DNA of 64,000 nt. Source: Nitrospira japonica. Lineage in GTDB: Bacteria; Nitrospirota; Thermodesulfovibrionia; Thermodesulfovibrionales; SM23-35. The notes beneath the pieces were generated by a model. That model was not told the DNA's origin, did not search any database, and saw nothing but the letters and a program-made list of their open reading frames with translations. Made by a program: the position numbers and the translations under genes. The DNA is taken from positions 8,339 through 72,338 of the forward strand of contig DYFC01000034.1 of the NCBI GenBank assembly GCA_020725385.1, given 5' to 3'. Of this stretch, positions 2,808-51,831 are shown piece after piece (the stretch's first letter is position 1; every line of letters starts with the position of its first letter).

Positions 2808-3845
2808 ATGTTATTTGGTGCAAAGAGCATTATCGGATTAGATATTGGCTCTGCGTATCTTAAGGTGGTTCAGCTTAAAGATACAAAAGCAGGCTATGAG
2901 CTTGAGCTACTTGATATGTTACAATTACCTCCTGAATTGATTGTAGATGGCTCTATTATTGACTCTATCCGTCTTGTTGAGGCCCTCAGAGAACTCGCAT
3001 CTAAAGCAAAAATCAAAGGCAAAGATGTTGTCATAAGCATGGCAGGACATTCAACTGTCATAATCAAAAGAGTTTCTTTGCCTGATATGTCAGAAGAAGA
3101 ATTATATGAATCAATTAAATTCGAGGCCGAGCAATACATACCTTTCGATATTGAAGATGTTAATCTTGATTTTCAGATATTAGGGCCAAAAGAAGAACCC
3201 GGTCAAATGGATGTTATGCTTGTTGCGGTTAAGAAAGATATTATTAACGAATATCTATCGGTCGTTAAAGAAGCCGGTTTTAATTGCCAGATTGTTGATG
3301 TGAATTCATTTGCGCTCGAGAATATATATGAAATAAATTATGAGATCGAACCCAACAAAAATATTGCGCTCATAAATATTGGCGCCAGTACAATAAATAT
3401 GAATATCCTTAAAGGTGGCATTTCAATTTTTACACGTGACAGTGCGGTTGGCAGCAATTTGCATACCGAAGTGCTCCAAAGGGAATTTAATTTAACCTAT
3501 GAAGTTGCCGAAAGACTTAAACGTGGAGAAGCGGTTGAAAACGTGCCGCCACAGGATGCATTTTCGGTTATGGAATTGGCATCCGAAGAAATAATCGGAG
3601 AAGTAAATCGCTCTCTTGAATATTTTCATGAAGATGTAAACGAGATTATTCTTAGCGGTGGTTGCGCTATTGTCAAAGACTTTCCTAAATTGCTTGCAGA
3701 GAAAACAGGTGTTGAAACAAAAGTAATACAGCCTTTTAAAAACATAAAAATACCTAAAAAATTCGATACTGCATATATAGAAGAGATCGCTCCTATTTAT
3801 GCGGTGGCTGCCGGACTTGCAATCAGGAGGCCAGGAGACAGATGA
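2808..3845 (+). CDS. pilM: type IV pilus assembly protein PilM (actin-like ATPase fold)
   Basis: N-terminal IGLDIGSAYLKVVQL, size and position ahead of pilNOPQ. Stop overlaps the pilN start (ATGA). Confidence 0.9.
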   Translation: MLFGAKSIIGLDIGSAYLKVVQLKDTKAGYELELLDMLQLPPELIVDGSIIDSIRLVEALRELASKAKIKGKDVVISMAGHSTVIIKRVSLPDMSEEELYESIKFEAEQYIPFDIEDVNLDFQILGPKEEPGQMDVMLVAVKKDIINEYLSVVKEAGFNCQIVDVNSFALENIYEINYEIEPNKNIALINIGASTINMNILKGGISIFTRDSAVGSNLHTEVLQREFNLTYEVAERLKRGEAVENVPPQDAFSVMELASEEIIGEVNRSLEYFHEDVNEIILSGGCAIVKDFPKLLAEKTGVETKVIQPFKNIKIPKKFDTAYIEEIAPIYAVAAGLAIRRPGDR

Positions 3846-7803: not shown

Positions 7804-8009
7804 GTCATTCCCGGGCTTGACCAGAGAATCCAGAAAGCACGGGACTGGATTCCCCGATTAAATCGGGGAATGACATTATTCTTGACTGTCATACCATGAC
7901 GTGATCGTGGTATCCAGTGATAAAGCTTAAAAACTGGATTCTTCAATCCCGCCATGAAAACGGCGGGCAGGTAAATCGGGGAATGACGTAAGGAAGATGT
8001 GACATCCAC
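7804..8009. repeat. repeat cluster A: four GTCATTC-hairpin-GAATCCAG units in both orientations, one with a nested hairpin, plus a GGATGTGACATCC palindrome
   Basis: Units at 7804-7833 (+), 7845-7874 (inverted), 7888-7917 (GTCATACC variant) and 7934-7987 (inverted, with cccgcc..ggcggg nested). Confidence 0.85.
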
Positions 8010-8533: not shown

Positions 8534-8748
8534 GTCATTCTCGGGCTTGAATGGATGAGAAAGGTAATAAACAACCCCCTGACCCCCTTAACAAAGGGGG
8601 AATAAGGTGTGGACAAAGGGATTGCCTTATAAATTCCCCCTTATAAAAGGGGTTTACCTTATTATATTCCCCCTTAGAAAAGGGGGATGAAGGGGGTTGT
8701 AAAAGGCTTTAAATTTTTGTCATTCTCGGTCTTGACCCGAGAATTATA
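8534..8748. repeat. repeat cluster B: composite G5/C5 module bracketed by two GTCATTCTCGG hairpin units
   Basis: aaccccctgacccccttaacaaaggggga ... gccttataaattccccctt ... ttaccttattatattcccccttagaaaagggggatgaagggggttgt. The element order is the same as at 12625-12877 and 15497-15797. Confidence 0.85.
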
Positions 8749-12362: not shown

Positions 12363-12877
12363 GTCATTCTCTGGCTTGACCAGAGAATCCAGAAGGCACG
12401 GAACTGGATTCCCGCTTTCGCGGGAATGACAAAATATAGGTGTGGATTCCTCAATCAAGTTGAGGAATGACGAATTGGATGTGACATCCATAAAAAATGG
12501 AATGACGTTTAAATGACTTGTCATTCCCGGGCTTGACCCGGGAATCCAGAATTTTCTGTCATACCACAATTCTCTGGTCAAGCCAGAGGGCATGCTTGAT
12601 TGTGGTATCCAGAGGGAAGAAAGGCACAACCCCCTAACCCCCTTGACAAAGGGGGAATAGGTGTAGGGAATAACAAAGGGGGAAAGGCACAACCCCCTGA
12701 CCCCCTTAACAAAGGGGGAAAGGCACAACCCCCTAACCCCCTTGACAAAGGGGGAAAAGGGTAGTGGTTAACAAAGGGGGAATAGGTTGTGGAGAAGGGG
12801 TTACCTTATAAATTCCCCCTTAAAAAAAAGGAGGTTACCTTATTATATTCCCCCTTAGAAAAGGGGGATGAAGGGGG
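12363..12877. repeat. repeat cluster C: six GTCATTC/GTCATACC hairpin units (one nested inside another) followed by a composite G5/C5 module that runs into the DUF559 start
   Basis: Hairpin units at about 12363-12392, 12404-12430 (inverted), 12444-12473 (inverted), 12519-12548 and 12558-12614 (nested). 36-bp units from about 12625. The cluster ends ...ttaccttattatattcccccttagaaaagggggatgaagggggttgt. Confidence 0.9.
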
Positions 12878-15469: not shown

Positions 15470-15932
15470 GTCATTCTCTGGCTCGACCAGAAGAGAAGGG
15501 TGTGACAACCCCCTAGCCCCCTTGACAAAGGGGGAAAGGCACAACCCCCTAACCCCCTTAACAAAGGGGGAAAAGCACAACCCCCTAACCCCCTTGACAA
15601 AGGGGGAATAGGGTAGTGGTTAACAAAGAGGGAATAGGTGTAGGGAATAACAAAGGGGGAATAGGGTGCATGAAAAGGGAATGCCATTATAAATTCCCCC
15701 TTAAAAAAAAGGGGGTTACCTTATTATATTCCCCCTTAAAAAAAAGGGGGTTACCTTATTATATTCCCCCTTAGAAAAGGGGGATGAAGGGGGTTGTAAA
15801 AGCCTTTAAAATTTTGTTGTTCTCGGGTCCTCTGGTTCCACCAAACAAATGGCGGACAAGCAAGTCAAAGGGCGTGCTTGATTGTGGTATCCAGAAACCT
15901 TGAAACTGGATTCCCGCTTTCGCGGGAATGAC
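15470..15932. repeat. repeat cluster E: hairpin unit, 36-bp units x3, composite module with 35-bp tandem unit (15703-15772), degenerate nested unit and a terminal inverted hairpin unit
   Basis: Same element order as cluster C but without a DUF559 gene. aaaaaaaagggggttaccttattatattccccctt occurs twice, followed by agaaaagggggatgaagggggttgt. Confidence 0.9.
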
Positions 15933-19031: not shown

Positions 19032-19156
19032 GTCATTCCCCGACTTGATCGGGGAATCCAGAAATTTTCTTGTCAGTTTTACTTGTTACACATGCGACGT
19101 TGAGAAAGATTCACATTTTCTTTATACTGGATTATCCGGTCAAGCCGGATAATGAC
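19032..19156. repeat. repeat cluster F: two hairpin units in inverted orientation about 65 bp apart
   Basis: gtcattccccgacttgatcggggaatccag (19032-19061) and ctggattatccggtcaagccggataatgac (19127-19156), between convergent genes. Confidence 0.8.
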
Positions 19157-35420: not shown

Positions 35421-35939
35421 ATGCTGGATACATCGAGTTTAGGCCTGATTCAAGTGCAGCAGGATGTTAAGATACTGCCTCCAAATGCTATTATTACGAC
35501 TTTTGACAAAATTATTAACTGGGGCAGGCTTTCATCTATATGGCCTATGACATTCGGACTTGCTTGATGTGCTATTGAGATGATGGCCGTGGGCGCATCA
35601 CATTATGATTTTGACAGGTTCGGTGTTATTTTTAGAGCTTCACCCCGACAGGCAGATTGCATTATAATCGCAGGCACAGTTACTAAGAAAATGGCTCCAA
35701 TTGTAAGAAGAGTTTATGATCAAATGCCTGAGCCGAGATATGTTATCTCTGTTGGAAGTTGTGCATGCACCGGAGGGATTTTCAAAACATACAGCACAGT
35801 ACAGGGTTGCGATACTTTCCTGCCGGTTGATGTTTTTATCCCTGGTTGCCCTCCAAGACCCGAGACATTTCTTGAAGGTGTAATGTTGCTTCAGGAAAAA
35901 ATAAGAAAAGAACAGGCGAGGTGGAGTCCATGGCGGTAA
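35421..35939 (+). CDS. nuoB: NADH-quinone oxidoreductase subunit B with an in-frame UGA (35565-35567) at the first Cys of the conserved CCxxE motif; candidate selenoprotein (alternatively an error or pseudogene)
   Basis: ATG at 35421 is in frame with the track ORF at 35580. Translation ...[39 protein letters not shown]...SPRQAD...GSCACTGG...IPGCPPRPE matches the full-length NuoB/Nqo6 pattern. Confidence 0.75.
35576..35605 (+). promoter_or_regulatory. candidate SECIS-like hairpin downstream of the nuoB UGA (weak)
   Basis: UGAUG-GCC-[GUG]-GGC-G-CAUCA, with an additional 3-bp lower stem. Apical loop lies about 22 nt after the UGA. The region also encodes a highly conserved peptide, so the pairing could be coincidental. 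Confidence 0.3.
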
Positions 35940-47105: not shown

Positions 47106-47242
47106 GTCATTCTACGACTTGCCTGCCCACCGATTTTGTGGTGGGATTGAGAATCCAGTTTGAATAGTCTCTGGATTCTCGGGTCAAGTCCGAGAATGAC
47201 AAGTAATCAAAGGTCATTCCCCGACTCGATCGGGGAATCCAG
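47106..47242. repeat. repeat cluster G: three hairpin units (one with a nested cccacc..ggtggg hairpin, one inverted)
   Basis: Units at 47106-47158, 47171-47200 (inverted) and 47213-47242 (gtcattccccgactcgatcggggaatccag). Confidence 0.85.
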
Positions 47243-49463: not shown

Positions 49464-50387
49464 ATGAATCAAGAATTTATTGTAACATCCTCTGAAGCCG
49501 GGCAAAGGATAGATGTCTTTCTCTCTTTAAAGACAGGCATTACCCGTTCACAGATACAAAAAGCTATCGATAGAGGCGATGTGTTTGTTAGTGGAAAAAT
49601 TATTGAGAATAAATACAGGATACGACAGGGTGATGTTATTCTGATTAATTTAAAAGAGAAGAAAGACGAAGGACTTATTCCTCAGAATATACCAATCGAA
49701 ATTCTTTTTAAAGATGAATATGTCATTGTAGTAAACAAGCCAGCAGGTATTGTTGTCTATCCAGCAGCAGGGCATGAGGATGGAACATTGATGAATGCAA
49801 TTACGTATCATTGCGGCACAATTGTAGCGCCAGGTGCTCCATTGAGACCGGGTGTAGTACATAGACTTGATAAGGATACTTCAGGCGTTATGGTAATCGC
49901 TTTGAACGATATTTCCTATTACAATCTAATTGAACAATTTCGCAAAAGAACAATTAACAGAAAGTATATAGCTTTGGTTTATGGGATAATGAATGAAGAC
50001 AGTGGAGAAATAATCAGGAAGATAGGCCGTTCAGAGTCTGATCGAAAAAAAATGTCCACCCATGTTAAAAAAGGTAAAGAAGCATTAACACGATGGAGGG
50101 TTATCAAAAAATTACCGTTTGCTACAATAATAGAAGCAAAACTCGGAACCGGAAGAACACACCAGATAAGGGTACATTTTGCATCTATAGGCCATCCTGT
50201 ACTTGGAGATAGGGTTTATGGGAAAAAATGTGAGATTCAACTGAAGACAGGCAAGAAGATAGTTTTCCCGAGACAGATGCTTCATGCAGAGATGCTTGGT
50301 TTTATTCATCCCGCAACCAATGAATATCTTGAATTTTCAAGTCCTTTACCCGATGATATGGAAAAAACAATTAGAGAAATGGAATAA
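49464..50387 (+). CDS. rluD: RluA-family 23S rRNA pseudouridine synthase (RluD-like)
   Basis: N-terminal S4 domain, catalytic HRLDKDTSGVMV, GRTHQIRVH motif. Confidence 0.85.
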   Translation: MNQEFIVTSSEAGQRIDVFLSLKTGITRSQIQKAIDRGDVFVSGKIIENKYRIRQGDVILINLKEKKDEGLIPQNIPIEILFKDEYVIVVNKPAGIVVYPAAGHEDGTLMNAITYHCGTIVAPGAPLRPGVVHRLDKDTSGVMVIALNDISYYNLIEQFRKRTINRKYIALVYGIMNEDSGEIIRKIGRSESDRKKMSTHVKKGKEALTRWRVIKKLPFATIIEAKLGTGRTHQIRVHFASIGHPVLGDRVYGKKCEIQLKTGKKIVFPRQMLHAEMLGFIHPATNEYLEFSSPLPDDMEKTIREME

Positions 50388-50415
50388 AATAAATTCCAGG
50401 AAAATAATCTGCATG

Positions 50416-50727
50416 TCAAAAAGTAATAATTTTATCTGCTTCTTTTACTGATTCATAAAGGTCATTCATATAGCCTATTGGACACATTTTTGAGCTCACA
50501 AGTCCGTGAGCTTTCATACAAACTCCTCAGACAAACATGTTGCCTTTAAATTTATCTATTTGTTCTTTTACATTGAATTTTTCATCATTAATTTGCTCAA
50601 ATAAAACTGCTTTCCCGAGCATAAAAACATTTACTTCATCACCCTTTTCTACAGCTATATTTGCTAATCTCATAGCATTATAGATTTTTTCTGCATCATC
50701 GGTACTTAAAATAAATAGGATATTCAT
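50416..50727 (-). CDS. DsrE/DsrF-like protein with in-frame UGA (50527-50529) at a UxxC position; probable selenoprotein, 103 aa
   Basis: The track ORF (66 aa) ends at a TGA. Reading through gives ...KGNMFV-U-GVCMKAHGLVSSKMCPIGYMNDLYESVKEADKIITF, restoring the C-terminal third of the DsrE fold with U aligned to the first Cys of CGxC. A strong hairpin follows the UGA. Confidence 0.8.
50493..50512 (-). promoter_or_regulatory. SECIS-like hairpin downstream of the DsrE-like UGA
   Basis: On the minus strand, AGCUCAC-GGACUU-GUGAGCU forms a perfect 7-bp stem starting 14 nt after the UGA. The 6-nt loop begins GG. Confidence 0.7.
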
Positions 50728-50748
50728 TTTATATCCCCCTAAATTTTA

Positions 50749-51831
50749 TTAATCTCCAAAACTAATACCCATTGATCTTGCTGTAAGAACTATATCAGAG
50801 TCCAGAGGCACTGATTTCATCTGTCCAATTGCTTCTTCAATAGGAACTGCGATTATTTCGGTAGAACGTACAGCAGCCATCATACCAAATTTACCTGCTT
50901 CAACAAGACGAACAGCAGCTGTGCCAAATCTTAAAGAAAGTAATCTATCGAAAGTCGTAGGCGCGCCTCCTCTTTGTAAATGACCGAGAACTATATCCCT
51001 TGTTTCTTTGCCGGTTTTTTTCCCGATTTCTTCTCTTACTTTTCTTCCTATACCACCTAATCTTACTTCAGAACCTCCTGGCTGTTTGCCTTCAGCAATT
51101 GTAATTTCTCCTCCAACAGGTTTGGCTCCTTCAGCAACAACGACAATTGCATAATCTCTTCCCATCAAAGCAAGCTGTCTGATTTTGTTGCAAACTTTAT
51201 CAATATCAAAAGGTATTTCAGGAATTAGAATAACATCCGCAGAACCCGAGATTCCTGAATGAAGGGCTATCCAGCCAACATAACGACCCATTACTTCAAC
51301 AACCATAACTCTGTCGTGAGATCGTGCTGTAGTGTGAAGACGATCAATTGCTTCAGTAGCAATGTTAACAGCAGTATCAAAACCAAAAGTTGCGTCAGTA
51401 CAGCTAATATCATTATCAATTGTTTTAGGAACACCAATAATTGGCATTCCTTTTTTTAGAAATTTATTTGCAATTCTGAGGCTTCCGTCACCTCCGATAG
51501 CGATTAATGCGTCAAACCCGAGCGCCTTGAAATTTGAGACAATAATATCCGAAATGTCTGTTTCAACAACACTTCCATCAGGCTGGTTTACTGCATATTT
51601 AAACGGGTCGCCTTTGATTGCTGTGCCAAGAATTGTTCCTCCAATATCTGTAATATCCCAAACTGATTCCGGTGTAAGACGAACAATCTGCTTTGTGTCA
51701 ATCAGTCCTCTATATCCATATTTAATGCCATAAACTTCCCAGCCTTTCTGGTGAGCTGCAAGAACAATGCCTCTTATTACGGCATTAAGTCCGGGTGCAT
51801 CCCCCCCGCCAGTATTAACAGCTATTTTCAT
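50749..51831 (-). CDS. pfkA: 6-phosphofructokinase (GGDGS motif suggests ATP-dependent type)
   Basis: TGGGDAPGLNAVIRG, IGGDGS, PKTIDNDI, MGR and HLQRGG motifs. Confidence 0.85.
   Translation of the reverse strand: MKIAVNTGGGDAPGLNAVIRGIVLAAHQKGWEVYGIKYGYRGLIDTKQIVRLTPESVWDITDIGGTILGTAIKGDPFKYAVNQPDGSVVETDISDIIVSNFKALGFDALIAIGGDGSLRIANKFLKKGMPIIGVPKTIDNDISCTDATFGFDTAVNIATEAIDRLHTTARSHDRVMVVEVMGRYVGWIALHSGISGSADVILIPEIPFDIDKVCNKIRQLALMGRDYAIVVVAEGAKPVGGEITIAEGKQPGGSEVRLGGIGRKVREEIGKKTGKETRDIVLGHLQRGGAPTTFDRLLSLRFGTAAVRLVEAGKFGMMAAVRSTEIIAVPIEEAIGQMKSVPLDSDIVLTARSMGISFGD

Follow-up and report, generated by a model that had tools for sequence, protein, structure and literature searches.

The 64,000-nucleotide stretch of Nitrospira japonica contig DYFC01000034.1 analyzed here (the window; assembly GCA_020725385.1) carries on its minus strand, at positions 50416–50727, what is with little doubt a single gene for a 103-residue DsrE/DsrF-like selenoprotein, in which an in-frame UGA at codon 67 would be read as selenocysteine (Sec). 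The frame opens with ATG at 50727–50725, runs through 66 codons to TGA at 50529–50527, continues for 36 codons (GVCMKAHGLVSSKMCPIGYMNDLYESVKEADKIITF) and closes with a second TGA at 50418–50416. The mechanical list of open reading frames (ORFs) splits this gene into a 66-residue ORF and an ATG-initiated 33-residue ORF (50416–50517). A preliminary description of the locus had joined the two pieces across the first TGA; on re-reading the sequence, its frame, both TGA positions and the length of 103 residues are all correct. The assignment of the complete gene (103 codons, Sec being codon 67, plus the stop) draws on the translation, the Pfam match of the read-through product, colinear orthologues and an AlphaFold2 model. 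If the standard bacterial pathway operates here, a ribosome arriving at UGA-67 would face a hairpin 14 nt downstream, and this hairpin would bind SelB carrying GTP and Sec-tRNA(Sec). Sec would then be inserted in place of termination, and translation would run for 36 further codons to the real stop.

The domain is complete only with read-through. With U67 replaced by Cys, the 103-residue product matches the Pfam DsrE profile PF02635 from end to end (profile positions 1–116 of 116; 43.4 bits, E = 4.3e-11), whereas the 66-residue fragment scores 21.1 bits, under the cutoff of 22.7, and covers profile positions 1–48 only. This bears out the earlier proposal that read-through yields a full-length DsrE protein. 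To collect orthologues, one genome per species was scanned with a peptide pattern taken from the N-terminal half of the protein; the scan is therefore not biased towards TGA. It returned 44 full-length orthologous loci in named metagenome-assembled genomes (MAGs), or 45 with the window included. Their hosts are Nitrospirota (Thermodesulfovibrionia), Thermodesulfobacteriota (Desulfobacterales, Syntrophobacterales, Desulfobulbia and Desulfohalobiaceae) and Candidatus Thermodesulfobacterium. All 44 orthologues are colinear across residues 1–103 and carry TGA at the homologous codon (45 of 45 with the window, where it occupies 50527–50529); after it they read GVC[ML]K...CP...DLYE...TF and then stop. 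Homologues that end at the UGA, or downstream codons unlike the DsrE family, had been named in the preliminary description as outcomes that would overturn it. Neither was found: the orthologues continue past the UGA to a common end, and the downstream codons are DsrE-like by PF02635.

The downstream part evolves as coding sequence. Across 32 gap-free sequences, the ratio of nonsynonymous to synonymous substitution rates (dN/dS) is 0.094 before the UGA and 0.091 after it, in a comparison in which orthologue divergence reaches about 50% identity. Nucleotide diversity downstream of the UGA in these sequences is 0.15 at first, 0.13 at second and 0.50 at third codon positions. The terminal stop varies among them (TGA in 13, TAA in 13, TAG in 6), and codon 67 is always TGA. 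In a syntenic contig with 87% DNA identity to the window (L054), similarity runs through the UGA and collapses right past the second TGA. Because coding conservation persists downstream and the similarity to L054 ends at the second TGA, we conclude that the 36 downstream codons are translated and that the true stop is the TGA at 50416–50418, following ...KIITF, the same place at which the orthologues stop.

These data bear on whether the UGA is a genuine stop, leaving a truncated 66-residue protein or a pseudogene, with the 33-residue ORF at 50416–50517 separate or meaningless. Gene callers do treat the UGA in this way: a search of 5.8 billion proteins yields more than 110 closely related clusters that are exactly 66 residues long, and some annotations add the 33-residue ORF. 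The 66-residue piece, however, falls under the Pfam cutoff with less than half of the profile matched, the frame across the UGA is kept in all 44 orthologues, and the three residues encoded between the UGA and the internal ATG are always G-V-C. Selection as strong downstream as upstream, over divergence of this extent, also speaks against a stop, and decay of a pseudogene would not retain TGA, over other stops or sense codons, in 45 of 45 lineages. We therefore regard a genuine stop as very improbable.

Another possibility is decoding of the UGA as Trp or Gly, through a reassigned code (table 4 or 25) or near-cognate read-through, without Sec. The same search of 5.8 billion proteins did return six 103-residue clusters with W at position 67. 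They were called on contigs no longer than about 1 kb, with TGA translated under code 4; the Trp thus stems from the gene caller's choice of code on short contigs, and the underlying DNA must also have TGA. We rule out a reassigned code, since the window's own copy of the gene ends with TGA, as do 13 of the 32 orthologues, and 8 of the 51 long ORFs in the window use TGA as an ordinary stop. Moreover, relatives of the protein carry Cys at this column, not Trp or Gly, and reassignment leaves unexplained the covarying hairpin, its G-G loop and its distance from the UGA, all described below. Decoding as Trp or Gly is thus highly unlikely. That TGC or TGT was misread as TGA in sequencing or assembly, for which one wrong base would suffice, is rejected with practically no residual probability, since the same TGA occurs in independent assemblies (L054 and 44 MAGs from different studies).

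The hairpin expected of a bacterial selenocysteine insertion sequence (SECIS) lies within the coding sequence, spanning codons 72–79 (50493–50512, minus strand). It begins 14 nt past the TGA and consists of a 5' arm AGCUCAC (50512–50506), an apical loop GGACUU (50505–50500) and a 3' arm GUGAGCU (50499–50493), the stem being perfect over its 7 bp and the loop 6 nt long. RNAfold extends the stem to 8 bp through a G.U pair, leaving a GACU loop; the apical loop starts 21 nt after the UGA (21–22 nt, depending on the G.U pair). Folded alone, the hairpin has an energy of −10.8 kcal/mol; relative to dinucleotide shuffles this is z = −4.2, and none of 200 is as stable. The chance rate was estimated with a rule demanding a perfect stem of at least 7 bp, bacterial SECIS spacing and a G early in the loop: of the 2407 TGA triplets that the window holds on its two strands, 24 (1.0%) precede a comparable hairpin. 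A hairpin of this kind is thus uncommon even before comparative data are considered. The published bacterial SECIS (bSECIS) model specifies an apical loop of 3–9 nt on an upper stem of 4–16 bp; a G among the first two loop positions, usually as G[G/U]; a distance of 16–37 nt from UGA to loop; and a minimum free energy of −7.5 kcal/mol or lower (2026 review, PMC13188914). The window hairpin lies within all four constraints.

Comparison among orthologues points to conservation of the hairpin as RNA. All 45 loci have G as the second loop base, and 44 of them have it as the first base too; the loop is most often GGUCUG, GGUCUU or GGUCAA, with a family consensus of GGUCU. In a gap-free, codon-registered alignment of 44 sequences, standard pairs occupy 82.7% of cells, compared with 23–53% when the partner is slid by 1–3 columns. 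Changes on both sides occur at 4 of the 8 pairs, in 32 cells, and the observed score is reached by 0 of 500 shuffles. In the clearest compensatory change, CAC...GUG becomes CGU...ACG, which keeps two base pairs while altering His74-Val77 to Arg-Thr. For example, both sides have also changed at pair 25:42 (U-A to G-C) and at pair 27:40 (C-G to U-A), in other lineages that include that of the window. Third-codon-position diversity is 0.36 in the hairpin compared with 0.61 in flanking codons, and the four-fold-degenerate codon for Gly75 is GGU in 36 of the 44 sequences. Gly at position 75 is not conserved among Cys-type proteins in an alignment of 31 Sec-type and Cys-type sequences. The loop G-G serves both as part of the Gly75 codon and as the SECIS signature, so that protein and RNA constraints overlap. 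The stem, loop and 14-nt spacing given in the preliminary description are exact, and its view of the hairpin as a bacterial SECIS is strengthened by the fit to published constraints and by the covariation. Like the E. coli fdhF SECIS and the bSECISearch consensus, the hairpin stands directly 3' of the UGA, inside the coding sequence, and bears a small G-G loop. Unlike the canonical bacterial SECIS, its stem is a simple one of 7–8 bp with no bulged U and no match in Rfam, and binding of SelB is predicted only. Judged from these sequence comparisons, the UGA, the downstream frame and the hairpin are all under selection.

The residue replaced by Sec is a Cys in most relatives, as the preliminary description had proposed in placing the UGA at the first Cys of a CGxC motif. 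We built a profile from six full-length sequences and compared it with 1.84 billion cluster representatives; 478 relatives have E ≤ 0.001, and for 143 of them E is 1e-10 or lower. The UGA column holds Cys in 82 of the 94 listed matches of at least 100 residues, which are distant full-length homologues. In the 31-sequence alignment, all 25 Cys-type rows read A-C-G-T-C. Cys70 (TGT, 50518–50520), the second residue of the U-G-V-C motif that begins with Sec67, is invariant in both Sec-type and Cys-type proteins, as is the third conserved position, Cys82 (TGT, 50482–50484); Pro83, with which Cys82 forms a C-P pair, is nearly so. When the PDB is searched with a profile, E. coli YchN (1jx7) is matched at E = 1.4e-7, with L-C-K-T-C on the U-G-V-C columns; a single-sequence phmmer search of the PDB gives no meaningful match, and YchN is reached only by the profile. 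The alignment to DsrE-family proteins that the preliminary description had called for thus shows the Cys/Sec correspondence both in the homologues and in YchN.

The predicted fold agrees with this assignment. In an AlphaFold2 model of an orthologue (P0001; mean predicted local distance difference test score 90.6), a strand spans residues 63–67 and a helix residues 68–73, so residue 67 is modeled at the end of the strand and the start of the helix. Six Foldseek matches in the PDB have E ≤ 0.001, and all are DsrE/DsrF-like: 3pnx (two chains), 3mc3, 2qs7, 2fb6 and 2hy5, with TM-scores on the query of 0.71–0.84. The gene product belongs to the DsrE/DsrF-like superfamily, in the YchN-like branch. 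YchN, a protein of 117 residues, is the closest solved structure by profile and shares a ...DKV.TF C-terminus as well as C-K-T-C on the U-G-V-C columns. It differs in having Cys instead of Sec and in lacking Cys82-Pro83, and the comparison informs the fold and motif only.

What the protein does can be approached by analogy. In DsrE and TusD, a reactive Cys close to the strand-to-helix junction carries persulfide sulfur. DsrE of the DsrEFH complex has the same fold (2hy5_B, Foldseek E = 2.2e-4, TM-score 0.74), and TusD of TusBCD is also matched (2d1p_C, E = 1.6e-3). These proteins have one catalytic Cys, compared with the UxxC motif here, and their partner genes do not adjoin the gene: no DsrF/DsrH or TusB/TusC partner is adjacent in the window, and no conserved partner is found across the 45 loci. 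In view of these missing partner genes we reject membership in a DsrEFH or TusBCD complex. The candidate selenium-metabolism protein YedF (TIGR03527) has a C-terminal DsrE-like domain with a CGxC redox motif, and the gene product matches it weakly in NCBIfam over residues 33–102 (E = 0.013). YedF differs in having two domains, the N-terminal one SirA/TusA-like, and Cys in place of Sec; the score here is 15 bits against a cutoff of 110. Because of the analogy with the cysteine sulfur relay of DsrE/TusD and with the CGxC DsrE-like domain of YedF, we lean slightly towards a small selenol/thiol redox or sulfane-sulfur (persulfide) carrier, in which Sec67 and Cys70 of the U-x-x-C motif would reversibly form a Se-S bond, with the conserved Cys82-Pro83 nearby. 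Our confidence in any specific biochemical function is low.

An alternative that concerns function only is that Sec67, Cys70 and Cys82, with or without His74, form a metal or cluster site, and that the protein is a metal or selenium chaperone. The invariance of the three Cys/Sec positions across Sec-type and Cys-type members would suit such a site, as would the weak selenium_YedF match, given the link of the YedF CGxC domain to selenium metabolism. The C-x2-C...(11)...C-P spacing, in a profile of residues 63–88 from the 31-sequence alignment, also weakly resembles RING-type zinc knuckles, although the RING-type matches in the PDB are not significant (Mdm2, E = 1.5; TRIM21, E = 3.2). Moreover, the third Cys is absent from E. 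coli YchN, the Desulfobulbia clade has Arg in place of His74, and there are no conserved metal-handling neighbors. We consider a metal site unlikely.

Several observations weigh against the interpretation of the locus as a gene for a selenoprotein carrier. No tRNA-Sec was found in the 64-kb window by ARAGORN or Rfam, which saw only tRNA-Ser(GCU) and tRNA-Arg, and no selA, selB or selD is present among the 20 annotated long ORFs of the window; nor was a tRNA-Sec found in 47 related loci, flanks included. The Sec machinery is therefore assumed for the organism; selB and selC have been reported in Nitrospirae in reviews, and selC may lie nested within selB there. Rfam at gathering thresholds on the whole window gives no SECIS-type match, and at permissive E-values on 50380–50760 it gives noise only (E ≥ 5.9). 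Because the strongest covariation, CAC/GUG to CGU/ACG, occurs mainly within a single clade (Desulfobulbia and relatives), it reflects fewer independent events than the cell counts suggest. The Cys-type control with DNA is a single locus, the paralogue at 2656–2976 of L040, which has no hairpin at the corresponding place (−3.5 kcal/mol, 4 of 8 pairs). On the side of function, the argument proceeds by analogy; hhalign to an approximate TusD sequence places TusD Cys78 on Cys70, not on Sec67 (64% probability); and the gene neighborhood is not conserved.

The kind of protein is already known. A selenoprotein family termed ‘DsrE-like, PF02635, UxxC’ was introduced in 2005 from Sargasso Sea data (Zhang, Fomenko & Gladyshev, PMC1088965). 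Members have been described in Desulfovibrio vulgaris (PMC1794560) and in deltaproteobacterial symbionts of Olavius (PMC1976440), and the family is retained in reviews of 2022 and 2026, with WP_014524487.1 of Desulfovibrio vulgaris as reference protein (PMC13188914). The statement in the preliminary description that DsrE-like selenoproteins are listed in surveys is thus accurate. The window gene falls under the family definition, having a PF02635 domain and Sec as the first residue of U67-G-V-C70, and it shares with the family the SECIS directly downstream and the Cys homologues. The family reports come from the Sargasso Sea, D. vulgaris and Olavius symbionts, whereas the clade described here extends from Nitrospirota to Thermodesulfobacterium and is placed in the family by definition. 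Relatives from the Desulfovibrionales (Desulfohalobiaceae, L016 and L018) fall within the Sec clade. New are the membership of a Nitrospirota lineage, a clade that is all Sec-type across 45 sampled members and three phyla, and a 103-residue Sec product that is absent from the public protein calls we retrieved. From the sequences, all 45 members would use Sec. Such a clade would act, by analogy, in sulfur or selenium trafficking, and the gene itself would indicate Sec use in a Nitrospirota lineage with 36% G+C.

The consequence for public databases is that the more than 110 clusters are misannotated, as 66-residue fragments that are unnamed, hypothetical or ‘involved in oxidation of intracellular sulfur’, and the six W67 clusters as 103-residue proteins. 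None of the public protein calls of this gene that we retrieved (P0001–P0120) gives the Sec-containing 103-residue product. Looked up by exact sequence, the 66-residue product of the window itself has no entry. The active-site half is missing from databases because the true product, in our reading a 103-residue selenoprotein, has been deposited as fragments.

A second conserved in-frame UGA lies in nuoB of the same window (35421–35939, plus strand), where TGA at 35565–35567 stands in for the leading Cys of the pair in G-L-A-C-C-A-I-E-M-M. Translated through this codon, the gene encodes a complete NuoB (PF01058, E = 3.8e-31). We take the tandem Cys residues of the G-L-A-C-C motif to be ligands of Fe-S cluster N2 in respiratory complex I; C-C is present at the motif in all 120 best-scoring database NuoB homologues. 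The preliminary description had argued that the DsrE-like gene supports a Sec interpretation of nuoB, and the comparative data now extend this link. The nuoB TGA is shared by two metagenome contigs with about 89% DNA identity to the window (L052 and L151), and pairwise alignment to L052 shows one substitution in 84 nt around it. Scanning metagenome contigs for the pattern F-G-L-A-TGA-C-A-[IV]-E-M gave at least 120 stretches (L055–L174), nearly all with in-frame NuoB sequence on both sides of the TGA. Among the matches listed are bacterial sequences of at least 12 groups, and every group has a hairpin about 19–24 nt past the UGA; the apical loops are GGN or GUG, and the stems differ in sequence between groups and lie in different registers.

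About 35 of the TGA-containing NuoB matches listed are of the mitochondrial/alphaproteobacterial NDUFS7 type (U-CAVEMMHAAAARYD...), for example L058, L059, L064, L073, L074, L077, L081, L083, L086, L098, L102 and L113. Several contigs (such as L065, L121, L132, L134 and L167) diverge after ...MIVAG in an intron-like manner. Judging by their sequences, the NDUFS7-type matches may be nuclear genes from eukaryotic plankton that have Sec at the corresponding position. The nearest Cys-type NuoB (L175, 86% amino acid identity) keeps the window hairpin, GAUGAUGGCC-GUG-GGCGCAUC (35577–35602), and more distant Cys-type sequences (L176 and L177) do not have it. Retention of the hairpin in L175 is consistent with a recent Cys/Sec switch. 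In the literature searched we found no description of NuoB or NDUFS7 as a selenoprotein, and the text and family table of the 2026 review contain no NuoB, PF01058 or complex I. The nuoB UGA gains credibility because the DsrE-like gene in the same window acts as an internal control. We give roughly even chances to the full proposition that the DsrE-like gene marks a lineage decoding UGA as Sec, that the nuoB UGA is then probably Sec, and that it would define a new Sec-NuoB (PF01058) family. The main worth of the DsrE-like gene lies in this role as internal control for the nuoB UGA, with a possibly new selenoprotein family at stake.

Around the DsrE-like gene, a Shine-Dalgarno-like AGGGGGA (50734–50740, minus strand), read from the sequence and putatively functional, stands 6 nt 5' of the ATG, and a scan for promoters and terminators around the gene gave none above shuffled expectation. 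Its neighbors in the window and in L054 are pfkA, a nitroreductase gene and a convergent rluD. Since pfkA ends 21 nt upstream, the two genes are probably co-transcribed. In another Nitrospirota genome the neighbors are mnmG, methyltransferases and DnaJ. A conserved operon was considered and rejected, as the largest ‘conserved neighbor’ is an antisense shadow ORF. An apparent Cys paralogue beside the gene in 11 loci was likewise discarded: these are clustered N-terminal halves of the Sec gene, and L040 is the only true case. There, in a deltaproteobacterial MAG, the Cys-type A-C-G-T-C paralogue lies 24 nt upstream of the Sec gene (3001–3318). This paralogue, seen in 1 of the 45 loci, may have arisen by tandem duplication or may encode a partner in a hetero-oligomer. 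In five Desulfobulbia-type loci (L035, L037, L039, L040 and L041), a 416-residue pyridine-nucleotide-disulfide oxidoreductase (PF07992, Pyr_redox_2), possibly similar to sulfide:quinone oxidoreductase, is encoded downstream. An ArsR-family regulator is found upstream in L037, L039 and L040, and also in L013 and L018. These ArsR and oxidoreductase neighbors, absent from the window, raise a possible sulfur or sulfide context.

Elsewhere in the window, we observe ten copies of a 20–23-nt palindromic repeat, ATTCYC...GRGAAT (for example ATTCCCCGATTAAATCGGGGAAT), at 7807–7871, 8722–8744, 12366–12545, 15910–15929, 19035–19057 and 47175–47238. The copies lie mostly between long ORFs, sometimes in pairs, and may constitute a family of elements similar to repetitive extragenic palindromic (REP) sequences.

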